Below are positions 5,207-54,547 of a DNA stretch of 56,305 nt, one piece after another. The stretch is taken from positions 1 to 56,305 of IMG/VR virus record IMGVR_UViG_3300016469_000460. One strand, given 5' to 3'. A program made the position numbers and the translations under genes. This DNA is from a virus. Its lineage: Duplodnaviria > Caudoviricetes. Numbering within the stretch: position 1 is the first letter of the stretch; each line of letters starts with the position of its first letter. A model generated the notes under the pieces. That model was not told where the DNA came from, ran no database searches, and saw only the letters and a program-made list of their open reading frames with translations.

Positions 5207-6127
5207 ATGGATTATAGCCTTAAACAAATTAGAGAAGATTTTAAAAAGAGTGGGGTTTTTTATACAACATCCGAACTAGCTGAGTATTTAAAATCCTTGA
5301 TAGATATTGAATATTCAGAAGTATATGACCCTACTTGCGGAAACGGGCAACTTCTTTCCGTTTTTGCAGATGAAATAAAAAAGTTCGGTCAGGAAATAAA
5401 TGAACAACAATTACAAGTAGCTCAACAAAGGCTAGTAAATTTTAATGGATATTGTGGTGACACACTAAAAGACCCGCATTTCTTAGATAAAAAATTCAAG
5501 TGCATTGTAGCCAATCCACCATTTTCAATAAAATGGGAACCACCAATGAAAGGTCTTTTTATAGATGAAAGATTTTCGGATTGCCCAGCTTTACCACCTC
5601 CAAGTAAAGCAGACTACGCCTTTATGTTACATTGCCTACACTATCTTTCAGATGATGGAATAGCAGTTATTTTAAATTTCCCCGGCATTCTATATAGAGG
5701 TGCTTCCGAGGGCAATATTAGAAAATGGCTAGTACAAAAAAATTGGATTGACAAAGTGATTAGAATACCAGGAAAGACATTTGTTGACACAACTATCGAA
5801 ACCTGCATAATAGTTTTTAAAAAGAATAAATCCGATAGCTCTATTTTATTCATTGATACCGAAAGTAGCAAGCAAAAATTAGCTTCATTGGAAGATATAG
5901 TAAAAAACGATTATATACTTTCGGTCAATACTTACATAGAAAAAGATGAAGAAAGTAAGCCAATGATAGACCCATTACAATTGCAGGAAAAGGCTCATAG
6001 GTCAATGATATTGAGATTAAAGAAAAACATCGAAATGGATAAAATGATTTGCGAGCTTGAAGGGTGGGATTTCGTGCCGTACCTATTGCAGTTACAAGAA
6101 ACTATTAAATCATATCTTCAAAAATAA
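5207..6127 (+). CDS. N6-adenine DNA methyltransferase (HsdM/N6_Mtase-like, orphan)
   Basis: Motif X GVFYT, motif I YDPTCGNGQLL, GQEIN, catalytic VANPPFS, and PPxSKADYAFMLH typical of HsdM. Confidence 0.92.
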   Translation: MDYSLKQIREDFKKSGVFYTTSELAEYLKSLIDIEYSEVYDPTCGNGQLLSVFADEIKKFGQEINEQQLQVAQQRLVNFNGYCGDTLKDPHFLDKKFKCIVANPPFSIKWEPPMKGLFIDERFSDCPALPPPSKADYAFMLHCLHYLSDDGIAVILNFPGILYRGASEGNIRKWLVQKNWIDKVIRIPGKTFVDTTIETCIIVFKKNKSDSSILFIDTESSKQKLASLEDIVKNDYILSVNTYIEKDEESKPMIDPLQLQEKAHRSMILRLKKNIEMDKMICELEGWDFVPYLLQLQETIKSYLQK

Positions 6128-9738: not shown

Positions 9739-11541
9739 TTAGTTGTGAGTTACTGAAATACCAAGATTATTCAATTGTGCGATATAGCTAAGGCCAAGCG
9801 CTGTCGGTGCTGCATTTGTACCTGCTATCTTGACCGTTCTACCTGTGTATAGCCCCGGCGTTGATTCACCCCTCAAAGTTACACAAATTTTCACCAAATC
9901 AAAAAGGAAACTATCTACTTCCGAAGCAGACAATCCACAGTTATTTGCATCAAAGATAGCATTCTTAGCCCCTAATATACCTTGACAAAGGGTAATATCG
10001 TAATATGCGATATTTGAACAATTATTGATAGAATATTTATTGATAGCTCCGAAAGAAGTCGTATGCGACACACTTGTAATTGCACTATCCGCAACATCAA
10101 AAACATCTGCTATCGGCATAGTTGAAACATCTAGGACGGTATTAAGTGCTATATTTTTAATACCTAAGAATTTTGTTTCACTAGGTCTGTCGCCCCAACC
10201 GGAACCGATATTCAATGTCGTCAAAGCCTGATTGTCTGAACAGTCAAAAACAAGTATTTCGCCCCTCATAGCATCAATGTCGATGGAAACGCAATCTTTA
10301 TTTCCTGAAATAATGACATTATCAAGATTATTCAATTGAATAGTAGTCCCGAAGGTGACACCTGTCATATCGGGATTGCTAACGATGCTGACGTTAGCGC
10401 CATTGTCGAACAACAACGCTTCAAGGTCAATCGAATGATTAACCCCTGAATTTGTCAAAGAAAGAATAGTAGTTGCGGATGTGCTTTTCCCACCGCCCCA
10501 CAAGCTCCATGTCAAAAGCGCGGCACCGGATAAGAATATTTCACCTCCAAGATTTTCAAGGCCCGACATATCCAATATACTGCATCCGCTACCTTCTACA
10601 TACATCTTTTCAATCAAAGCGGTAGAACTTGGGGGGAAAGTAATAGCCAAAAGGTCAGGATTGCTATTGAATTGATATTGAGTAAGGCCAATGAAAAGTG
10701 TAAGGTCAAGGGTATTGACTATTTTTTGAGCTGTCATATTGATGCCCGTCACTAGTCCAAAATCACCCACTACAACATCCACCTGTTTCACACCACCTGT
10801 CAGGTAGTTATACGATGGATTATTGGAAGATACCCAATTTTGTGCGCCCGTGAAGTCAAAAAACAAAGTCGGGCCAGCATTGGTAAAAATAGGTTGGTGT
10901 ACTCCGATAATATCCGTTTCGTAGAACCAATTTGCTATCAATGGGAACAAAGGAACACCATTATAAGTAATTGATTCTAAGTCTGCATTGATAGGCTCAT
11001 TGAATTGAATGATGCTCCATATCGCTTGATATAGCTCAGGCGTAATCGTTGGCCCTGTCAGGTCAATTGTGTAGGGGCTACATGGTTGGCAACGGCCATT
11101 GTCAAAGGTTGGCCGTATATCGCTATCGAACTCCGTTGCGCTGTCAAATCCTCCTGTATCCCATACCTCTGTAATTACGGCCGTAATGCCCAACATAGCA
11201 AATAAAACCTGATAGCCCGGTATTGTACCGCGAATTGCTACATATCTATGCCAATGCTTAATGATGCGCTTTCTCATCATAGGGTCAAAGCTCAAAAATA
11301 AATAGCTATTCCCTAGACTTTGTTCTCTGTCTGGGATGTACTTATCGAGCATCGAGAAAGGCACTACCAAATTATCAAAGATGTTTTCAATGAAAGGCGT
11401 AATGTTTTCATCTATATCCTTTGCTATAATCTGATTGTACCGCTCTAATGTACCCTTACCATTGATGTCCTTATTAGGGTCGCTTTGTTTATCCGAACGA
11501 TGAAAAAAGCGAGAAAATAAGGTATTGAATAGACTAAGCAT
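9739..11541 (-). CDS. Baseplate wedge protein (P2 gpI/tail protein I-like) with C-terminal leucine-rich-repeat-like extension
   Basis: N-terminal RKRIIKHW..YVAIRGTIPGY..LFAMLG..ITEVW pattern of gpI-like proteins; C-terminal LDLTLFIGL, LDMSGLENL and FDCSDNQALTTLNI repeats. Confidence 0.72.
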   Translation of the reverse strand: MLSLFNTLFSRFFHRSDKQSDPNKDINGKGTLERYNQIIAKDIDENITPFIENIFDNLVVPFSMLDKYIPDREQSLGNSYLFLSFDPMMRKRIIKHWHRYVAIRGTIPGYQVLFAMLGITAVITEVWDTGGFDSATEFDSDIRPTFDNGRCQPCSPYTIDLTGPTITPELYQAIWSIIQFNEPINADLESITYNGVPLFPLIANWFYETDIIGVHQPIFTNAGPTLFFDFTGAQNWVSSNNPSYNYLTGGVKQVDVVVGDFGLVTGINMTAQKIVNTLDLTLFIGLTQYQFNSNPDLLAITFPPSSTALIEKMYVEGSGCSILDMSGLENLGGEIFLSGAALLTWSLWGGGKSTSATTILSLTNSGVNHSIDLEALLFDNGANVSIVSNPDMTGVTFGTTIQLNNLDNVIISGNKDCVSIDIDAMRGEILVFDCSDNQALTTLNIGSGWGDRPSETKFLGIKNIALNTVLDVSTMPIADVFDVADSAITSVSHTTSFGAINKYSINNCSNIAYYDITLCQGILGAKNAIFDANNCGLSASEVDSFLFDLVKICVTLRGESTPGLYTGRTVKIAGTNAAPTALGLSYIAQLNNLGISVTHN

Positions 11542-36548: not shown

Positions 36549-38132
36549 CTAAAAAGTTTCAATTTCTAAAGAATATTGCTTTGAATTTTTGAAAATTTCC
36601 ACATCTCTATCAATTGTGATAAGTCGGTCAATTGCCATAGCAATATTGACAGGATTCTTATCCATTCCATAAACCACCCTCCCAAGTTGATGACCTGCCG
36701 AAAGAATAGCCCCATCTCGAAGGAAAGGACTTACTACGATGCCTCCGACACGGGCGCATATCTTTATAGACTGTTCGATAGCGTCAAAAGGTATATTTTT
36801 CATATTCCCAATAGTTGGCGTGTGCCAAATGTCGGTAACATTCATATCCTTGATGTCAAAATGTGGGAAATCCACATCGTAATACTTTTTCAATTTGTCG
36901 TACTGAGCTTTCAAGTCTTCCCAATCTCGCAAGAAAGCTTTTCCTTCGGATGCTCCCTGTAGGATTTCGTAATGATGTTGGGGTATAAGTTCAAATTCAT
37001 CTTTTGAGAACCAATATTTGAACATTCCCTTCACATGGCACAGCTCATGTATTTGTGTAGCCTTCCAACCCATTTTCTTAGCTTCATCAGCTAAGTATTC
37101 TCTGATAGGCTCCCAACCTTCCCAATAGCCTGTTTCCGAATAATCGCTTTTCAGATTTCTAGTAAGGAATAACGCCCTTTCACTTGCCTTTGGGATAGTT
37201 CGTAGGATGTTATTCGCTTCCTTTTTATCCGCAAGTGGTTGCAGGCTATCCAAAGCCGTTTTAACCAATACAATTTCATTTTTCAATGCCCAATCGTCAA
37301 GTACCGTTTCATTGTGCCAAAGCCTCCAAAGTTCTGCTACATTGCCCCAAAGCATCATAGAAGCATAGTCGCTTAGATATTCGGAATAGGCAGATAGCCA
37401 AAGATGAAAGAAAGCGGTTCGATTGTCCGACATTTCATTCACAAGCTCCGGTATTTGTGCGTGGACAAAGACAGCCTTTTCCTCTTGCATCAATTTTGAT
37501 ACTGCTTCCTTATCTGTACTATTCCCACAGTATAATCGGTGGATACGTCCGTCCATGCATCGAATTTCAATCAAGTCACCTTCTTGTATGTCGGTGCTTA
37601 GGATGTTAGGATTGCTTTGGTATTCATCAAGCGTCTTTTTGCTGTCTTCTACAGGTCTTGTTTTTTCCTTTTGCGCTTTCCCGAAAAAATCCTTTTCCTC
37701 AAATCCGTTTTCAAATAGTATTTCGACAGGAAATTCATTGGCGAGAATTTCAAAGTCAAATTCACCTCCGACCTTATTGGCTGCAATGTTTGCCGCCTCG
37801 CATTGTTCCTTTGTCCATCTTACTTGTCGGTAATTATATTTTTCACCGTTCCAAATAATATATCCTAGGGCAACGGTGCCGACATCTGTAGGTGTTTCAT
37901 ATTGTTCTACAATGGTAATTTCACATTGTTCTAGGTCAATGATAGAGTTCCTTTGATTCCCTGAAATAATTTCATTGGAATTAAGGTCATGTACTATACC
38001 CGAAATGTCCCCATATTTTTTGAGGCTTTCGGATAGAACGGTATGTTGATGCTTTGTAATGTATCGAGGGTTCTTGTGATACCCTTTGACATTCTCAATG
38101 CCGTTACCTTTTTTACTTTTTTTCGCTGCCAT
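36549..38132 (-). CDS. ParB-N domain fused to a degenerate N6/N4 DNA methyltransferase domain
   Basis: N-terminus paralogous to ORF 18224; HRLYCGNSTD, LKNEIV and TDIW match the methylase scaffold, but HAQIPE replaces DPPY and SPFLRDG replaces (D/E)PFxGSG. Confidence 0.8.
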   Translation of the reverse strand: MAAKKSKKGNGIENVKGYHKNPRYITKHQHTVLSESLKKYGDISGIVHDLNSNEIISGNQRNSIIDLEQCEITIVEQYETPTDVGTVALGYIIWNGEKYNYRQVRWTKEQCEAANIAANKVGGEFDFEILANEFPVEILFENGFEEKDFFGKAQKEKTRPVEDSKKTLDEYQSNPNILSTDIQEGDLIEIRCMDGRIHRLYCGNSTDKEAVSKLMQEEKAVFVHAQIPELVNEMSDNRTAFFHLWLSAYSEYLSDYASMMLWGNVAELWRLWHNETVLDDWALKNEIVLVKTALDSLQPLADKKEANNILRTIPKASERALFLTRNLKSDYSETGYWEGWEPIREYLADEAKKMGWKATQIHELCHVKGMFKYWFSKDEFELIPQHHYEILQGASEGKAFLRDWEDLKAQYDKLKKYYDVDFPHFDIKDMNVTDIWHTPTIGNMKNIPFDAIEQSIKICARVGGIVVSPFLRDGAILSAGHQLGRVVYGMDKNPVNIAMAIDRLITIDRDVEIFKNSKQYSLEIETF

Positions 38133-46334: not shown

Positions 46335-47195
46335 CTATTGATGCGAACTTTGTTCTTCCTTTGCAGGCTCTAAGGCTTGTTCTTGCTCCATAGCAAGCCC
46401 ATTGTCCTGTGGCATTCCAAAAACGGGAAATTCGGGCATTGTAATGATTTTATAATCACTTTCGTGGGTAATTTCAAAGTAATTCAAGAAGATATTATAG
46501 ACTACCTCAGAATTGACGGGCTTGATGGTGAACCAAACGAATCTGAATACTTTATTATCCAAAACTTTCAATTCAAATTTGGTATTTTCGGGAACATAAA
46601 AATCCAAAATTCCCTCTTTTTCCATCAGTTCAAAAGCGCATTTTAGAGCCGATAAAGTACTATCAATAGAGTTTTTCAATCTAAGTACACCAGAAATAAC
46701 TTTCAAAACTCCCTCAATAACCGAAGCTTCCTTAATCAAATTTGGAAGGTCTGTAAGGGGTCTTGACCTATCTTTATTCATAAGATTTTCCAATTCAGGA
46801 TTAGCCATTGATTTTATGACTTCGATAGTTCTTTCTATTCCAAATGTTAAAGTAAGCTCCTCGGAAACTTGAATAGGCAAATACATCACCTTTTCAGCTT
46901 TCACATCAATATTGATTTTGTCGCTTTGTCCATAGATGCAAATAGGCAGCTTGACCTCGATTTTATCATTTTTGAAAACAGCAATGTATTTTCCGTTTTC
47001 GATAGTGATTTTCGGGTCATCTGGATTGCCAGCCTCGAAAGCTTTCAATTCATCATTTCGCACGCTAAGAACTTTCGGGTCAGTTCTGAGCCTTTGAAAT
47101 TCATTTATGTGAATGAATAGCTTTTCATCTTGAATGAAAGCGCTACGGCCTATTTTTTTGACATTAACGTCAATTTCTAATTTGTAATTTTCCAT
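46335..47195 (-). CDS. Hypothetical protein
   Basis: 286-aa ORF starting 4 nt after the csf3 stop. Confidence 0.75.
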   Translation of the reverse strand: MENYKLEIDVNVKKIGRSAFIQDEKLFIHINEFQRLRTDPKVLSVRNDELKAFEAGNPDDPKITIENGKYIAVFKNDKIEVKLPICIYGQSDKINIDVKAEKVMYLPIQVSEELTLTFGIERTIEVIKSMANPELENLMNKDRSRPLTDLPNLIKEASVIEGVLKVISGVLRLKNSIDSTLSALKCAFELMEKEGILDFYVPENTKFELKVLDNKVFRFVWFTIKPVNSEVVYNIFLNYFEITHESDYKIITMPEFPVFGMPQDNGLAMEQEQALEPAKEEQSSHQ

Positions 47196-47199
47196 TGAA

Positions 47200-47889
47200 T
47201 TATGAATTTTGAATTAAAAAATCTGTGTAATTTTTATCACTCGAAGGCACTACACAAGGCACAGCGCCTATTTGTTGATGATAAGGGGGCATAGTTCGCA
47301 TTACGAAGATGCTACCTGTCTTTTTCTTTTGAGCGGCAAACTCTAATGGAGCAGGTCGCTTCAAGGTGTCCCAAAAATTGCCATTACAAGCACTTATTTT
47401 GACATCTCTTATCCAACCATATCCCTTTGATACTTTCTTTCCAATGCCGACAATATCTTGTAGGATTTCGGCTACCTTATCAGCATCGCCACAGAACCAA
47501 GCAACGGCACCGGAACACACAAAGCCTGTTCTTGGAATATTGGCACTTTTCATAGTGCCTCGCTGCGTATCTATGCCCGTGCGCTCCTTATCGGATATTA
47601 CCCAATGTGACTGTTCGTTCCAACGCTTCTTTTCCGAAGTAATGAAAGATTGCACATTGCCTGTTAAAAATATTTGAGAGGCAAGGAAACAACCTGCTTC
47701 GGCATCAAATTCTATCGGAAAGTCTTTGGCAGTAGAAAAGTCGAAAAGTTCATCAGGGGCATACATCGGCTTATTGAAAAAACTTTCAGGATGGTATTTT
47801 TGTAGCCAAAATTTTGCAATTAGTCCGTCAAGCATCAGGGGCTTATATTGCAAAACGGTGTGTTGGATAGTGAATTCAATCTTGTGCAT
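47200..47889 (-). CDS. csf3: Type IV CRISPR-associated Csf3 (Cas5-like RAMP)
   Basis: PLMLDGLIA N-terminal motif, IDTQRGTMKS, WFCGDADKVAEIL, G-rich loop GIGKKVSKGYGWI, RPAP and PPY. Confidence 0.85.
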   Translation of the reverse strand: MHKIEFTIQHTVLQYKPLMLDGLIAKFWLQKYHPESFFNKPMYAPDELFDFSTAKDFPIEFDAEAGCFLASQIFLTGNVQSFITSEKKRWNEQSHWVISDKERTGIDTQRGTMKSANIPRTGFVCSGAVAWFCGDADKVAEILQDIVGIGKKVSKGYGWIRDVKISACNGNFWDTLKRPAPLEFAAQKKKTGSIFVMRTMPPYHQQIGAVPCVVPSSDKNYTDFLIQNS

Positions 47890-47907: not shown

Positions 47908-48717
47908 TCAAATGTATTGTTTCAGCTTTGGCATAATAGCGGCAAGCCTATCGAATATTTCAGGGTAGTAGTATTTCAAGAAAACCGCTTGTCCTTGATT
48001 CGTTCTTGCCGATGGTAGAATCCAAGACTTTCGGATTTGTTCAGGGCTATCTACGAATGCTGTTTTGAAATATACATCAAAGATAGGGATATTTCTCGAA
48101 AAAAGATAGGCAAAGACATCGCTTGCACTCCAATCGGCTAAGGGTTGGCATACAAATTCATTATCTCGCTTGCAATAATACCAATATCCGTTTTTTAAAA
48201 AGTTCATTCGCCTTGCCTTGCTTTCCTCAGCTCGAAGACCTAGTAAGACAGCACCGACATTGTTAGCCTGCTTATAGTCCCGAATAAGATTGTAAAAAAA
48301 ATCATTGGCGAACTTGATGCCTCGGCTGTGGATGTCGTCGGAAAAGTCAATTTCTTTGATATACTCCCAAGGGTCTTTCTCGGGTGAAAGTATGTCCACT
48401 TGATAGCGGAACATTTCACTTATCGTTTTGATGTATTCTAGTTCTCCGGGGAAATCCATCGTATCTTTTTCCGTCACAGCTCGAATCGGTAGCCGATTAT
48501 CATAAAAAATACTTGCTATGAGGTGCAGCATGGCCGTACTATCTTTTCCACCGCTCCACATGGCCCTACATTGAGTTACAATATTCGGAACCGCTTCATC
48601 AATTGCGTGAAAGAAATCATAGACCACCGTTTGCGCTTTTTCCACCTTTTTTTTGAAGGCAGAAGTATTGGCACGAAGCATATACATTTCGTGCCAATAT
48701 TCTATCGGTTTTTCCAT
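47908..48717 (-). CDS. cysH: PAPS-reductase-family (CysH-like) PP-loop protein associated with type IV-B
   Basis: PP-loop WSGGKDSTAM, LGLRAEESKAR, PLADWSASDVFAY; adjacent to csf3. Confidence 0.88.
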   Translation of the reverse strand: MEKPIEYWHEMYMLRANTSAFKKKVEKAQTVVYDFFHAIDEAVPNIVTQCRAMWSGGKDSTAMLHLIASIFYDNRLPIRAVTEKDTMDFPGELEYIKTISEMFRYQVDILSPEKDPWEYIKEIDFSDDIHSRGIKFANDFFYNLIRDYKQANNVGAVLLGLRAEESKARRMNFLKNGYWYYCKRDNEFVCQPLADWSASDVFAYLFSRNIPIFDVYFKTAFVDSPEQIRKSWILPSARTNQGQAVFLKYYYPEIFDRLAAIMPKLKQYI

Positions 48718-48720
48718 TGG

Positions 48721-49347
48721 CTATTTTTGATTATTCCAATCGCTTTCGAGCTTTTTCCCAATTTCGTTATCATTGAAATGCAAAACAACTTTTTGAGGAT
48801 TTTTAGCGGCTTGCTTTCTCTTGATTTCCGCTTCGATAGCTGCGAAAATTGCGGCTGCGGTGTCAATGAGTTCATTCATATAACCATCTTCATCATTTTC
48901 TAAGACGGCCTTTGCAATTTCCCCACATTCCTCACCGATAATCAATGCCCACTTTTCTTTGCTGTGATTATCTTGACATCCGAACTTTTTCATTTGGGCA
49001 TATCGCTTACGGATAATGCCGTTAATGATTTTGTAGTTGATTGCAGCGAAATCGGTTCTTTCATCTTCAAATAGGCCGTTATTAAAGATTTCAGCAAATT
49101 TAGTGACCTTGAATCCTTCTTGCAGATTCATCCATTGCCCCTGTCCTTCGTTTTCATTGACTTGATATTCCAAAACGTCAATAGCACGCGGTTTATATGT
49201 GCCTTTTTCGGTAGAAGTAGAAGCGAGAATGCAGATGTAAAAACCTGTTCTTTCAGGCTTGTAGCTTTGGGCATTGAGCCAAAGTCCGAACATAATTCCA
49301 CTTTCGGAATCCATGTATTTCTTACTGTCTAATGATAGTTCTTTCAT
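48721..49347 (-). CDS. Protein with MazG-like NTP pyrophosphohydrolase domain
   Basis: KFGCQDNH..WALIIGEECGEIAKAVL...ELIDTAAA, the ExxE...ExxD pattern. Confidence 0.75.
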   Translation of the reverse strand: MKELSLDSKKYMDSESGIMFGLWLNAQSYKPERTGFYICILASTSTEKGTYKPRAIDVLEYQVNENEGQGQWMNLQEGFKVTKFAEIFNNGLFEDERTDFAAINYKIINGIIRKRYAQMKKFGCQDNHSKEKWALIIGEECGEIAKAVLENDEDGYMNELIDTAAAIFAAIEAEIKRKQAAKNPQKVVLHFNDNEIGKKLESDWNNQK

Positions 49348-49359
49348 TGAATAGATTGA

Positions 49360-49779
49360 TTATTTATTGTGCTTGTAAAATTCGGCAAAGTAAAATTTCC
49401 AATTTCTTATTTTACCGTTTTCATCAATGTTCATAATGATATAATCGCCTTCATTATCTCTTTTTGGCGACATGGTGCGAGGCACATACTCATTTTTAAG
49501 TTCGCAAATAACATTATGCTCATCATCAATGACCTTGCAAGAAAAACCGTCACAAACCTTGTAATGAACACTTGCGGTAGTGCCTTGGGGCCAATCCGAA
49601 ATAATACCCGAATCAATATCAATGGATATACTCCAAATATTGGATTTGAGAAACGGCATTAAGTTTCCTTCATAGTCTTCTATGCCGTTCACTTTTGCAT
49701 CTTCTGGGTATCGGACGCGTGCAATCACTTCAAGCGTTTTAAGCTCGATTTCCTTCGGAATATATATTGTTGCCTTCAT
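49360..49779 (-). CDS. Conserved hypothetical phage protein
   Basis: VRYPEDAKVNG...WPQG..ASVHYKVCD...YVP...GDYIIMNIDENGKI..W. Confidence 0.7.
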   Translation of the reverse strand: MKATIYIPKEIELKTLEVIARVRYPEDAKVNGIEDYEGNLMPFLKSNIWSISIDIDSGIISDWPQGTTASVHYKVCDGFSCKVIDDEHNVICELKNEYVPRTMSPKRDNEGDYIIMNIDENGKIRNWKFYFAEFYKHNK

Positions 49780-49810
49780 AGAATTATTGAAAAGGTAAAA
49801 AATGATGTTT

Positions 49811-50500
49811 TCAGTCTATACACTTTTGAAAGTGCAATTTCATTTTTGTGAGGTCAACGCAGCATAGGTGATTGTAGCCCTGCTTATTGAAAACACATCC
49901 GTTGTCAATGTTTAAAACTTGGAAATGTTCAAGCTCCGAAAAGCGTTCCTCTATCTCATGTCTTGTTTGTGGTGTGTGACCATGCACTATGATTCTTTCA
50001 CCCAACCAACTATATTTAACCGAATCCGTCCACTTTCTTATCCAAAGCATGGATTGTTTGTCATCAAATAGGGAGCCTTGGTTGAAGTTCAATCCTGCAT
50101 GCACGAAGATGAACCCTTTCGATTCGACATAATATTCCATTGCATGGCAAAAATCAAGATATGATTGGGGAATATCCTGAATAGAATTTGGAATATTACC
50201 GTCTATTGCAAAACTGTCGAGTGCTTGCCTTCCACCATTGACGTTCCAAAAATAAAGATTTTCATAATTTTCGCCACTTTCCAACATCATTTGTTCATGG
50301 TTGCCGCGTAAGGCTGTCACTTTGTAGCCCGATTCTTTGAGCTTCATAATCCTATCCAAGACCTGTTTACTTGCAGGGCCTCTATCTATGTAGTCACCCA
50401 ATAGGAAAAGTTCATCTTGCTTGCTAAGACCTATTTTGTCGAGCATGGCCGCAAAGGTCTTATCGCAGCCGTGAATGTCGGATATGGCAAAAATTGACAT
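49811..50500 (-). CDS. Metallophosphoesterase (lambda-PP/PphA-like Ser/Thr phosphatase family)
   Basis: SDIHG, LGDYIDRG, LRGNHE, FVHAG, VHGHTP and IDNGC. Confidence 0.93.
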   Translation of the reverse strand: MSIFAISDIHGCDKTFAAMLDKIGLSKQDELFLLGDYIDRGPASKQVLDRIMKLKESGYKVTALRGNHEQMMLESGENYENLYFWNVNGGRQALDSFAIDGNIPNSIQDIPQSYLDFCHAMEYYVESKGFIFVHAGLNFNQGSLFDDKQSMLWIRKWTDSVKYSWLGERIIVHGHTPQTRHEIEERFSELEHFQVLNIDNGCVFNKQGYNHLCCVDLTKMKLHFQKCID

Positions 50501-50502
50501 GG

Positions 50503-50685
50503 TTATTTTTTTTCAATTAACAAGACTATTTTCTTTAGCGAATGAAACACATATAGCAAATTTCCAAACATCAAAATCCAAAATAACACATCGCTTGGAT
50601 TTTTTTGGATGTGCTGAATGGAAACAATACTTGCATATATGCTGAATATCAATAAGAAGATATGCAATATAAGATTTTTTTTCAT
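50503..50685 (-). CDS. Small membrane protein (2 TM)
   Basis: Two hydrophobic helices; tightly packed between csf2 and the phosphatase. Confidence 0.6.
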   Translation of the reverse strand: MKKNLILHIFLLIFSIYASIVSIQHIQKNPSDVLFWILMFGNLLYVFHSLKKIVLLIEKK

Positions 50686-50705: not shown

Positions 50706-51977
50706 CTACGCTTTAAACTTTTTCCCGTTAACCTCTTTTTTAGCAGCAAAGAAGCTTTGAATTTCCGCTTTTCTACTGTCAAGGTAATTCAAGTAATGAC
50801 TTTCATCACAAGAGAAAAATGGCATATCAAAGCCGATTTCCCCATGCGCTACACTAGATTTTCCACCAATGTAACCGTTTTGCTTCAATAGGTTCAGGGT
50901 ATGGTATAGACAAGAAATAAGCAGGGGCATATCTTCAAAGATAGGTTCGATAGCTAATTTCAATTCAAGCTCCGTGCCTGTGACAAAACTTTCAGTCCAA
51001 TATAACATCTGTTGAGGGTTGTCAGACTTTTTGCCCGTGCCTTCGTTTTCTAGTACCTTCATTCGCTTTTCATCTTTCAAAATGTCGCTTCGAGTTCCGA
51101 AAACAAAAGAGGTCAATTCCCAATGTGATATGTCCCCATTTCCAAGCTCTGTGCATCTTGGAACGGCATGGGAAATATTCAAAGCTCCCTCTATCATATC
51201 CGAACCTTTGGCGGTTCCGAACAGCCCTAGCGGTGGACACATATAGACTTCTTGCAGGCGCTTGTCAATCTCAATCTTACCCGTACTATCAGTAAGCGCA
51301 CCGCCCGAAAAGTATTCATAATATTCCTTGACGCTCAGTTTTCCGATAAGCTCCATTCGCTCAAAGAAAAACATCATTGCCAAATCTCGAAGACTATGAC
51401 GGATAGAGTTACCGGAAATAACCGGAATTTGCTCTATGTTTTTTGTAAGCAAAATATTACGCTCCAAGATGTTAATTTCGCCCACCATAGAAACAAATCG
51501 TTTGCAAGTAACATCTTCATCACTTGCGATTGTTTCTTTCAAATTTCGGAATCCTAGGAACAAATATTGTAGTTCGGTTCGGATAAGGTGCAAAAACTCA
51601 AAGTCACTGAATAGAGAAAGCATATTGAATAGCTCATCATTTTGCATTCCTCGAATGCCGAACTTTGCCCCGAACTTTGAAAGAAAGTCCGGTATGTCAG
51701 CAGCGAAAGCGGAAATAGTCAAGGCAGAAAAGAACTCATCATAGATACTGCTTTTTCTTTGTTGCCTTGTTTCGGATGGGATTTCTCGCCACAGCAGATA
51801 TAAAATTTCTATCGCTGCAATTCGAGCGTGCTTTTTTGAGTGGAATTTTGTTGTGATGGTAGTAGGCTCTATCACAAAAGGTTCGCGTCTATGAAGTTTA
51901 ACATTGCCTGTATTTTGATTGTCAGAGCCGCAATGTAGGGCCTGCAATGCCTTGATGTTGATGGTAGTTTTGAACAT
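50706..51977 (-). CDS. csf2: Type IV CRISPR-associated Csf2 (Cas7-like RAMP) with inserted Cas11-like small-subunit domain
   Basis: IKALQALHCG, IPVISGNSIRHSLRD, FSGGAL, PPLGLFG, GTRSD, QQMLY and IGGKSSVAHG; about 140-aa helical insert at aa ~39-180. Confidence 0.88.
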   Translation of the reverse strand: MFKTTINIKALQALHCGSDNQNTGNVKLHRREPFVIEPTTITTKFHSKKHARIAAIEILYLLWREIPSETRQQRKSSIYDEFFSALTISAFAADIPDFLSKFGAKFGIRGMQNDELFNMLSLFSDFEFLHLIRTELQYLFLGFRNLKETIASDEDVTCKRFVSMVGEINILERNILLTKNIEQIPVISGNSIRHSLRDLAMMFFFERMELIGKLSVKEYYEYFSGGALTDSTGKIEIDKRLQEVYMCPPLGLFGTAKGSDMIEGALNISHAVPRCTELGNGDISHWELTSFVFGTRSDILKDEKRMKVLENEGTGKKSDNPQQMLYWTESFVTGTELELKLAIEPIFEDMPLLISCLYHTLNLLKQNGYIGGKSSVAHGEIGFDMPFFSCDESHYLNYLDSRKAEIQSFFAAKKEVNGKKFKA

Positions 51978-51997
51978 TGTTTTGTTATTTTTTCAGA

Positions 51998-52714
51998 TTA
52001 TTGTTTTGTAAGGCCCTTAATGAGTAGGTGAAACCAAAGGTCGTTTCGATAGCCTTGAAGTATGTCATTTCCTGCCATGTAAGCATCCGAACCATAAGCC
52101 TCAATTTTGGCAAAATTAGTGCTTCCTGCCAAAATCTCCTGTTTGGTAAAGTGTGTTAGTTCGGTAGCCATGCCGCGCGTTTTCTCGGTAACGGTGTACC
52201 ACTTTTGAACGATGGGCAGTATCTCCATTGCCTTAGTTCTGTCGAATAGTACGGGGCCAATTTCGGTTTGTACGGAAAAAATGTCGTTGTTATAATTGAC
52301 CTCAGCTTTGAAAGAAGTATGCTTTTGGGCTTTGGAGCTTTGAAGTGAACCAACGCAAAAAACAAAGGGCGTTTCCTTGTCAGCTAGTAGGTGCTTCAAT
52401 AGGTTTTCGCTATTCAGTAGTACCAAGTTTTGTTCACTCGCAAAAAAGCTATATTTTCTAAGCTCTGAAAAACTATCTCCTATCGGTAAGGTAGGCTTGA
52501 TGCACAAGGCAACATCTATGCTGATATAATCGGAATTGAATTTCAAGCTATCCCAATCCGTGAAATTGGAGGATAGTATTTTCTTACTATATCCGCTTTC
52601 GATTTCCTGCCCTGTGAAAGCACAAATTTGAAGGCACTTGAACTGTATGGGTGGATGGTCCAAACCTGATTTATTCAAGTGCCTTGCTATGATGTTACAA
52701 GCGTGCTTTTTCAT
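51998..52714 (-). CDS. csf1: Type IV CRISPR-associated Csf1 (Cas8-like large subunit)
   Basis: CAFTG, SSNFTDWD, LRKYSF, PFVFCV, QKHTSFKAEVN and FTKQEILAG motifs; upstream of csf2. Confidence 0.78.
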   Translation of the reverse strand: MKKHACNIIARHLNKSGLDHPPIQFKCLQICAFTGQEIESGYSKKILSSNFTDWDSLKFNSDYISIDVALCIKPTLPIGDSFSELRKYSFFASEQNLVLLNSENLLKHLLADKETPFVFCVGSLQSSKAQKHTSFKAEVNYNNDIFSVQTEIGPVLFDRTKAMEILPIVQKWYTVTEKTRGMATELTHFTKQEILAGSTNFAKIEAYGSDAYMAGNDILQGYRNDLWFHLLIKGLTKQ

Positions 52715-54302
52715 CTACTTGTTCAAGTGCTACGATACAACCTGTTGTTAGGAAAAGTCCACCGATGGAAGCGGCATTTTGTAGGGCAATACGTGTCACT
52801 TTCACGGGGTCAATAACACGCATTTCAATCATATTGCCATACTTTCCGGTTCTTGCGTTATACCCGAAATTCATTTCAGGGCTTTCCAAGACCTTTTGGA
52901 CAATCAAGGTGCTTTCCTTGCCTGCATTTTCGACAATGCACTTGATAGGTGCTTGGAGGGCATTTTTAACGATGTTAATACCCATTGTTTCATCTGCATT
53001 TTCACCTACCAAATTTTCAAGGGCTTGGATGCAGCGAATCAAAGCGATGCCGCCGCCAGGTACTATACCCTCTTCAATCGCTGCATTAGTAGCGTGAATT
53101 GCGTCATCAATACGGTCTTTCTTTTCTTTGACCTCTGTATCGCTATTACCACCAACGTAGATGATGGACACGCCGCCTGAAATCTTTGCAAGTCTTTCTT
53201 TGTAATATTTTTGCTCCGATTCCGTATTAGCAACTCTGAGTTTGGCGTATAGGCTTTGCATCAAGCCCTTGACACTTTCTTGCGAACCCTGAGCATTGAT
53301 AATTAAAGTCTTGTTCGACTTGATAGAAATAGCCTCACAGCGTCCCAAGTCATCAATTTTGACATCTTCAAGTTTCAGATTCATTTCATCTGAAATGACC
53401 TTTGTTCCGGTCATAATGGCAATATCCTTCAAAGCATCCTCTTTTCTATCGCCAAAATTTGGAGCTTTGACAGCAATCATAGGGCGATTATATTGGACAG
53501 TTTGCAGCAGCATTGTAGCCAATACCGTTTCATGGAAATACTCAGCTACAACAACAATTGGCTTGCCTTTGGCGGCTACTGCTTCCAAGATGGGAACAAT
53601 CATTGAAATGTCAACAATTCGTTTATTTGTTACCAAGATAAGCGGATTATCCAAGTAACATTCGTTCCGGTCAGCACGATTGACAAAGTTTTGAGATGTA
53701 TAGCCCGAATCGAACTCAAAGCCCAACATTTTTTCCAAGCGGTCTTCGGTGGTTTTTGATTCCAAGACTGTGACCATGCCATTGCTTGCCGATTTTCGCA
53801 CCGCCTCGGCTACTAACTTGCCTACATTCACATCGCCATTTGCAGAAATTTCGGCTACTGTGTCGGTGAATGAATTGAACTCCGATTCATTACTAGTGTC
53901 AAATTTGACGGCCATTTCTTGTAAGGCGCTTACTACTGCTTCAACTGCCTTGTCAATGCCGCGTTTCAATCCCATCGGTTGCGCTCCTGCTTGAATGAGC
54001 TTGAAGCCTTCTTGAATGATGGAATAGGCAATTACTGTGGCGGTGGTAGTTCCGTCCCCTGCTAATTCGGCTGTTTTTTTGGCGGCTTGCTTCACGAGCT
54101 GTACCGCGTCATTTTCTACGTTATCAGATAGGAATATTTCATTGGCAACGGAAACACCGTCTTTAGTAATGACGGGAGGGCCATATTTTTTAGATAGAAT
54201 GACAGGCTTGCCAGCAGGCCCTAGCGTGCTTGAAACTGCATCGTATAGTTTTTTGATGCCTGCAAGCATCTTTTTTTGAGGGTTTTTGATAACTTTTTTC
54301 AT
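52695..54302 (-). CDS. groEL: Chaperonin GroEL
   Basis: STLGPAG, ITKDGVSVA, AGDGTTTATV, FDSGY, IEEGIVPGGG and IDPVKVTRIALQNAAS. Confidence 0.97.
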   Translation of the reverse strand: MKKVIKNPQKKMLAGIKKLYDAVSSTLGPAGKPVILSKKYGPPVITKDGVSVANEIFLSDNVENDAVQLVKQAAKKTAELAGDGTTTATVIAYSIIQEGFKLIQAGAQPMGLKRGIDKAVEAVVSALQEMAVKFDTSNESEFNSFTDTVAEISANGDVNVGKLVAEAVRKSASNGMVTVLESKTTEDRLEKMLGFEFDSGYTSQNFVNRADRNECYLDNPLILVTNKRIVDISMIVPILEAVAAKGKPIVVVAEYFHETVLATMLLQTVQYNRPMIAVKAPNFGDRKEDALKDIAIMTGTKVISDEMNLKLEDVKIDDLGRCEAISIKSNKTLIINAQGSQESVKGLMQSLYAKLRVANTESEQKYYKERLAKISGGVSIIYVGGNSDTEVKEKKDRIDDAIHATNAAIEEGIVPGGGIALIRCIQALENLVGENADETMGINIVKNALQAPIKCIVENAGKESTLIVQKVLESPEMNFGYNARTGKYGNMIEMRVIDPVKVTRIALQNAASIGGLFLTTGCIVALEQVDEKARL

Positions 54303-54474
54303 CGCTGTTTTTATTTTTAACTTTAAAACAAGTAAGCCCGAAAGACAATCACCTTATCACCGTTAAGAAACGTTATGCAATCTTACAGCACACACTAAGC
54401 TTACATGAAAATAGCTAGCATGAACCTATATTTTTCTTCTTGCCGCTCATTTTCGTTTCTTTTTGGTCGTGTCG

Positions 54475-54547
54475 AGCCGAAAATAGGAATCGAACCTACA
54501 ACCCCCTAATTACAAATTAGGCGCTCTGCCAATTGAGCTATTTCGGC
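54475..54547 (-). tRNA. tRNA-Thr(UGU)
   Basis: GCCGAAA acceptor stem, TAGCTCAATTGGCAGAGC D arm, CCTAA-TT-TGT-AA-TTAGG anticodon arm, GTAGG-TTCGATT-CCTAT T arm; CCA not encoded. Confidence 0.95.

Follow-up and report, generated by a model that had tools for sequence, protein, structure and literature searches.

The phage genome analyzed here carries a csf2 gene whose product is likely a type IV-B Csf2 (Cas7) backbone protein with a whole Cas11 small subunit in one of its loops, replacing the cas11 gene and supplying every protomer with a tethered belly domain. As judged from sequence comparisons, the insertion of Cas11 in Csf2 is real, conserved, and confined to a single site, and it represents a new form of type IV-B in which one polypeptide stands for two genes (csf2 and cas11). 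The accessible parts of the literature on type IV and on Cas7-Cas11 fusions describe Csf1-Csf3 and type III tandem fusions and contain no Cas11 nested in Csf2; supplements may list such variants. Domain insertion represents a third link between Cas7 and Cas11 in class 1 effectors, beside separate genes and tandem fusion. The nested form is also a natural experiment on the needs of Cas11, with a 1:1 ratio, tethering, and a 136-aa insert tolerated in a loop that presumably faces the target. With one gene fewer, it provides a simpler parts set for reconstituting the type IV-B complex and probing its phage role.

Genome and gene content of the type IV-B module

The window, i.e., the whole stretch of DNA analyzed, is an IMG/VR virus record of 56.3 kb that is estimated to be ~83% complete. 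It contains the tailed-phage genes for terminase, portal, major head, sheath, tape-measure, and baseplate proteins, and the nearest terminases are those of Bacteroidota phages, with identities of ≤29%. The same phage encodes a tRNA-Thr (TGT) (54474-54547), a sigma-70-family factor (163-1062), an N6 DNA methylase (5207-6127), and a ParB-like/methyltransferase fusion (36549-38132). The type IV-B-like module lies on the minus strand between terminator-like sites at 54620-54589 and 46057-46030 and comprises the following genes, in the order of transcription.

52695-54302, minus strand: GroEL-like chaperonin (PF00118, E 2.9e-69)
51998-52714, minus strand: csf1, small Cas8-like subunit, 238 aa (TIGR03114, E 2.6e-5; PADLOC Csf1_0_IV, E 1e-18)
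50706-51977, minus strand: csf2 (Cas7) with the putative nested Cas11, 423 aa, P0001 (ORF; PADLOC; PDB 7jhy_e)
within 48721-50685, after csf2, minus strand: 60-aa hydrophobic ORF
within 48721-50685, after the 60-aa ORF, minus strand: NinI-like Ser/Thr phosphatase (family match)
within 48721-50685, after the NinI-like phosphatase, minus strand: 139-aa ORF
within 48721-50685, before the cysH-like gene, minus strand: 208-aa MazG-like ORF (family match)
47908-48717, minus strand: cysH-like PAPS-reductase family gene, a type IV-B accessory (PF01507, E 8.8e-17)
47200-47889, minus strand: csf3 (Cas5), 229 aa (TIGR03116, E 2.6e-18; PADLOC Csf3_0_IV, E 2.6e-28)
46335-47195, minus strand: 286-aa ORF, starting 4 nt past csf3

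This content matches subtype IV-B as set out in the available text of two descriptions (PMC8175902, PMC7038947). The module has csf1, csf2 with the Cas11 region, csf3, and a cysH-like gene; no CRISPR-like array was found in the window, and neither a helicase (DinG) nor Cas6 was found among the 32 window ORFs scanned. The module thus appears to be a phage-borne type IV-B system, with the 423-aa protein as its predicted Cas7 backbone subunit (Csf2). Between the end of csf1 and the start codon of csf2 there are only 20 nt and no gene, which confirms the statement of the first-pass annotation that no separate cas11 lies between the two. The chaperonin gene and the start of csf1 share 20 nt of the minus strand, and the two genes may be co-transcribed; no GroEL-like homolog adjoins the other loci surveyed below. 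Four to five genes separate csf2 from cysH in this genome, and the other insert-bearing loci mostly pass directly from csf2 to cysH or csf3. Homologs of cysH adjoin csf2 or csf3 in most related loci, and five loci (L013, L014, L027, L032, and L034) have a second or longer cysH-like gene (369 to 446 aa) near the module. Searches of Pfam, NCBIfam, PADLOC, and PHROGs gave no match for the 286-aa ORF, and the 52 other loci contain no homolog of it.

Site of the insertion in Csf2

The 423-aa protein as a whole matches the PADLOC model Csf2_0_IV (E 1.4e-39) and also the PADLOC model Cas11_1_IV (E 9e-8). Residues 180 to 381 align to chain residues 58 to 261 of the solved IV-B Csf2 (7jhy_e, E 1.7e-4), and residues 174 to 275 align to positions 38 to 139 of the NCBIfam Csf2 profile (TIGR03115). 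The latter match scores just 25.4 bits, well short of the curated cut-off (130), which indicates that the protein is a divergent member of the family. The Csf2 core HMM covers aa 178 to 414, with one Csf2 core per protein.

Four motifs mark the layout of the protein: ALQALHCG from aa 10, AAIEILY from aa 54, TELQYL from aa 134, and IPVISGNS from aa 184. The RAMP N-terminal strand and G-rich loop occupy aa 10 to 25, and the I-P-x-I-S-G-N-S-x-R motif occupies aa 184 to 193, so that the spacing from strand to motif is ~136 aa greater than in short Csf2. The first-pass annotation had reported that IPVISGNS is displaced to aa 184 to 191, with an extra stretch between strand and motif at 51438-51863 (aa 39 to 180), and both readings stand; in short relatives, the motif is found at approximately aa 33 to 70, and the extra stretch is ~136 aa long. 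Alignment to stand-alone Csf2 sequences, which had been proposed as the way to define the insertion, places it at aa 38 to 173, at a single site. For this purpose, an HMM of the short-Csf2 N terminus (54 positions) was used, and it is split in two by the window protein: positions 4 to 38 correspond to aa 2 to 37, and positions 34 to 53 correspond to aa 174 to 193. This split indicates that ~136 aa were inserted cleanly at one site. Among 77 insert-bearing proteins, 75 match the N-terminal piece of the HMM and 76 match the later one. The same HMM gave no sign of a leftover duplicate of the first strand behind the insert, and this idea was rejected.

The segments of the gene are as follows, with identities given as mean pairwise values among 57 insert-bearing proteins.

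51867-51977, minus strand: Csf2 N-terminal strand and G-rich segment, aa 1-37 (HMM positions 4-38; 34% identity)
51819-51866, minus strand: N-side linker, aa 38-53 (14-21 aa, conserved Phe/Arg pattern, 26% identity)
51519-51818, minus strand: Cas11-like domain, aa 54-153 (PADLOC Cas11_1_IV at aa 52-153; hhalign at aa 54-158)
51459-51518, minus strand: C-side linker, aa 154-173 (variable length and sequence)
50706-51458, minus strand: Csf2 core with IPVISGNS at aa 184-191, aa 174-423 plus the stop codon (TIGR03115, 7jhy_e, core HMM)

The nested domain seems to be under constraint, with a conserved length of 93 to 110 aa and 27% mean identity, compared with 36% for the core. The linker residue F45 is kept in 88% of the 57 sequences. 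The C-side linker, with the region taken as aa 154 to 180, ranges from 15 to 67 aa and shows 15% mean identity among the same relatives.

Identity of the inserted domain

The insert alone (137 aa) matches positions 4 to 108 of the 122 positions of the PADLOC typeIV_Cas11 model Cas11_1_IV (E 7.5e-9). Among the inserts from different loci, 16 of 16 match this model (best E, 4.5e-18) and 14 of 16 match Cas11_0_IV. A profile built from inserts only matches the stand-alone genes in the cas11 position with an hhalign probability of 98.6% (E 1.3e-15), and the stand-alone genes match the whole insert-bearing proteins with 98.4% (E 9e-15) over 106 columns. In addition, the 125-aa ORF of the metagenome locus L001 aligns with aa 55 to 150 of the window protein (BLASTP E 1e-8), and in 16 columns the majority residue is identical in inserts and stand-alone genes. 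The resemblance to type IV-B Cas11 that the first-pass annotation had proposed is therefore supported by these profile matches, and by sequence, the insert is a complete type IV Cas11 small subunit (aa ~54 to 153).

The link to a solved structure is provided by a profile built jointly from 13 inserts and 27 stand-alone genes, for which the sole significant PDB match is 7jhy_h ("Csf4 (Cas11)"; E 1.3e-4), spanning chain residues 34 to 154 of 162. The inserts-only profile gave no Cas11 match in the PDB, and chance-level PDB matches only were obtained with single sequences (the insert and the L001 Cas11) and with a profile of 12 stand-alone genes. The Cas11 genes of four cultured plasmids match 7jhy_h at an E value of 3.6e-20, and the inserts match these four genes with an hhalign probability of 48% (E 1.8e-4). 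No Pfam family was found for the stand-alone genes in the cas11 position, and a search of the ESM Atlas returned sub-threshold matches only. Hydrophobic periodicity favored alpha over beta in only 74 of the 127 segments scored, and a helical insert would follow from the Cas11 homology only. The median net charge is 0 in the nested domain versus +2 in the stand-alone genes, which could reflect an altered nucleic-acid face or a changed role.

Relatives and gene-order survey

Seven close relatives of 382 to 416 aa have the same layout, as do dozens of more distant ones. An exhaustive homolog search gave 506 matches at E ≤ 0.001, and 209 sequences were classified, comprising the best 150 of the 506, the close-relative matches, and the Csf2 proteins of all loci. 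Among these 209, 77 have an insert after the N-terminal strand, 6 have an insert but are cut at the N terminus, 122 are short, and 4 are odd. The search for homologs with the same nested fusion that the first-pass annotation had suggested has thus returned 77 such proteins, plus the 6 truncated ones. In Logan, contigs of four runs extend over the junctions with the gene uninterrupted by gaps (X1, 51187-52800; X2, 51036-51799; X3, 50738-51668; X4, 51807-52031); the runs come from three other studies, the contigs are ~91 to 98% alike, and each crosses one or the other junction. The layout shared by the relatives and these gap-free contigs indicate that the sequence is not an assembly artifact. 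No RNA holder was found among the listed sequencing runs.

When the whole protein was compared by tblastn with 50,697 phage and 72,556 plasmid records, no match covered at least 80% of it, and the core alone was matched. The nested form represents a large, overlooked IV-B branch in uncultivated phages, with no member in the searched collections of cultured phages and plasmids. A homolog search for longer proteins found none, which is weak evidence, and a related-locus search with alignment A1 in viral and genome contigs gave no match.

Gene order was surveyed in 53 loci, namely, the window, 3 metagenome loci, 44 viral loci, and 5 genome loci. A separate ORF occupies the cas11 position in each of the 36 loci whose csf2 is short, and it normally lies immediately upstream of csf2. 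In 35 of them this ORF was found by two HMMs; the exception, in L045, was found by jackhmmer seeded with the nested protein and by the PADLOC model "Csf4gr11, possibly Cas11." In L001, for example, the order is csf1, the 125-aa ORF, a 315-aa csf2, cysH, and csf3, and four cultured plasmids (two from Rhodococcus, one each from Natrinema and Thermococcus) have the split order as well. A csf1-cas11 fusion in L031 was considered and rejected; the 319-aa ORF there owes its length to an upstream extension and overlaps csf1 in a different frame.

In the 17 insert-bearing loci, no separate cas11 was found (0 of 17), and the Cas11 signal lies inside csf2 only. Joint occurrence of the insert and a separate cas11, which the first-pass annotation had named as the result that would speak against it, was thus observed in none of these loci, including two complete phage genomes. 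Of the 17 loci, 13 have csf1 directly upstream of csf2; among the remaining 4, L005 and L015 are rearranged, and L049 and L053 are cut by contig ends. A six-frame Cas11 search gave one match per record in this record and in five whole viral records, two of which are 100% complete. The matches sit inside open frames of 406 to 437 aa (428 aa in the window's record), and the single match in the window lies at 51519-51824. As the window's record is 83% complete, the rest of this genome may hold a second cas11. The survey shows that the insert takes the place of the separate cas11 found between csf1 and csf2 in sister loci.

Origin of the nested form

A FastTree phylogeny was built from 199 Csf2 core regions with the insert excluded, and all 81 insert-bearing rows fall inside one group of 86. 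The other five rows of the group are three N-terminally truncated calls (P0050, P0054, and P0057) and the proteins P0036 and P0136. An IQ-TREE analysis of 80 rows, which omitted the three truncated ones, comprised all 16 insert-bearing locus rows with 22 insert-bearing proteins taken at random, 22 split locus rows with 18 randomly chosen split proteins, and also P0136 and P0036. On this core-only tree, the 38 insert-bearing and 40 short rows are separated by one change with support of 100/99, and the Cas11-only tree likewise requires one change, with support of 90. These results are consistent with a single origin of the nested form on an unrooted tree. The nested layout defines a large branch in uncultivated phages and metagenome-assembled genomes.

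At the DNA level, the change amounts to a transfer of the first ~37 csf2 codons from the downstream to the upstream side of cas11, possibly by a duplication of cas11 and the csf2 5' end followed by two deletions. Two proteins have other layouts. P0136 (416 aa) carries 120 extra N-terminal residues ahead of a complete Csf2 and may be a tandem Cas11-Csf2 fusion; the extension matches Cas11 profiles weakly (hhalign 33%, E 4.5e-4) and has no HMM match. Its placement on the tree is unsettled (AU P = 0.456), and therefore, it cannot be called an intermediate. In P0036 (409 aa), the first ~158 residues match Csf1, and they are followed by a Csf2 core beginning at the C-side linker. This protein is without the first strand and without Cas11, falls among the insert-bearing proteins on the tree, and may be a deletion product or an artifact.

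Proposed function and alternative explanations

By sequence, Cas11 occupies the loop that separates the strand and G-rich segment (aa 1 to 37) from the IPVISGNS strand (aa 184), and it is joined to Csf2 by a short conserved N-side linker and a variable C-side linker. According to the available account of 7JHY, six Csf2 subunits form the backbone and five Cas11 subunits sit on Csf2-Csf2 interfaces (PMC7937560). By analogy, the Csf2 cores of the nested form would polymerize on RNA as in the solved IV-B filament, and one tethered Cas11 domain per protomer would dock on a Csf2-Csf2 interface to form the belly. With one Cas11 domain per Csf2 polypeptide, the Cas7:Cas11 ratio would be hard-wired at 1:1 by the gene structure. 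Csf1 and Csf3 would presumably cap the filament, and the CysH-like enzyme would act with it. The insertion site follows the G-rich loop and precedes the ISG(N/S)S strand; it may be equivalent to the Csm3 segment in this position, which holds the catalytic-Asp loop facing the target strand (PMC7937560).

An insert-bearing module with a CRISPR array nearby was also observed. In L007, an array at 10416-11164, ~950 nt downstream of the module, contains 11 identical 32-nt repeats with 33- to 34-nt spacers and reaches the contig end; the same contig has portal, ClpP-like protease, and HK97-type capsid genes. The repeat is presumably type I-C-like. The proximity of module and array suggests that nested filaments could be RNA guided. 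Array-like repeats were present at L007 alone among the 17 insert-bearing loci and at L031 alone (3 copies) among the other loci, and the L007 spacers gave nothing beyond 12- to 17-nt chance matches to the surveyed loci. Taken together, we lean slightly toward a single ancient insertion of Cas11 in a target-facing Csf2 loop that produced a self-sufficient backbone-plus-belly protomer and a widespread, mostly phage-borne IV-B branch, reached by a route independent of types III-E and III-Dv, with a different topology, and with filaments that could be RNA guided.

It is also conceivable, albeit unlikely, that the insert is of Cas11 descent and no longer a canonical small subunit, so that the filament would have no true belly; the domain may instead act in cis as a lid over the RNA/target channel or as a dock for Csf1 or the CysH-like enzyme. 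The position of the site in what is probably the target-facing segment that holds the Csm3 catalytic loop (PMC7937560, as far as its available text goes), the lower net charge of the nested domain, and an N-side linker with conserved residues of its own would fit such a role. However, the domain keeps the full Cas11 length and the conserved positions of the stand-alone genes, its long, variable C-side linker is as expected of a tether reaching a distant site, and no replacement cas11 was found, all of which speak against this explanation.

Cas7 proteins of other types bear helical insertions, and the insert might accordingly be a lineage-specific, helical "fingers"-type elaboration of Cas7 that is unrelated to Cas11. 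Type III-Dv provides an example of a Cas7 insertion in the accessible text of PMC11026444, and the lack of a Cas11 match in the single-sequence and inserts-only PDB searches is compatible with this explanation. Nevertheless, it is disfavored and very improbable, given that curated type IV Cas11 models match all 16 inserts, that the inserts match stand-alone cas11 genes with an hhalign probability of 98.6%, and that insert and separate cas11 are strictly mutually exclusive across the 53 loci. An assembly, frameshift, or gene-calling artifact, conceivable in a metagenomic viral contig, is practically dismissed by the 77 insert-bearing and 6 N-terminally cut proteins from many sources among the 209 classified, the 406- to 437-aa open frames in five other viral records, and the contigs of four runs that cover the junctions gap-free in the gene.

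Comparison with known systems

The closest relatives are the split phage IV-B-like loci, such as L001, L026, and L030, which have the same gene set in the order csf1-cas11-csf2, followed by cysH and csf3, and whose entire Cas11 can be aligned with the insert. They differ in having a separate cas11 of 113 to 175 codons and, in most cases, a Csf2 of 272 to 342 aa.

The solved IV-B complex of Mycobacterium sp. JS623 (7JHY) likewise comes from a system with Csf1, Csf2, Csf3, Cas11, and a CysH-like gene and with no array nearby. Both Csf2 and Cas11 of the window are linked to 7JHY chains by sequence, Cas11 via the joint profile only. In JS623, however, Cas11 is a distinct protein encoded by its own gene, and the map is reported in the available text to contain 6 Csf2 and 5 Cas11 (PMC7937560), whereas here Cas11 is predicted to be a domain inside Csf2, and the module belongs to a tailed phage and has four to five unrelated genes between csf2 and cysH.

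Type IV-E also fuses neighboring type IV subunits, in this case Csf1 and Csf3, according to the portion of PMC7038947 available; the subunits are different, and the fusion is in tandem rather than by domain insertion.

Type III-E Cas7-11 (gRAMP) and the type III-Dv Cas7-Cas5-Cas11 resemble the present protein in that Cas11 is tethered to Cas7, and in the accessible description their Cas11, on long linkers, folds back onto the backbone (PMC11026444). In these proteins, whole domains, including several of Cas7, are fused end to end, and the size of the complex is fixed, whereas the present protein is of type IV, with a single Cas7 split by Cas11, and the protomer presumably still polymerizes. 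Instead of the several Cas7 domains and Cas11 in tandem that define type III-E Cas7-11, one Csf2 core with a nested Cas11 was found. The different type and the nested rather than tandem topology suggest that this link between Cas7 and Cas11 arose independently of Cas7-11.
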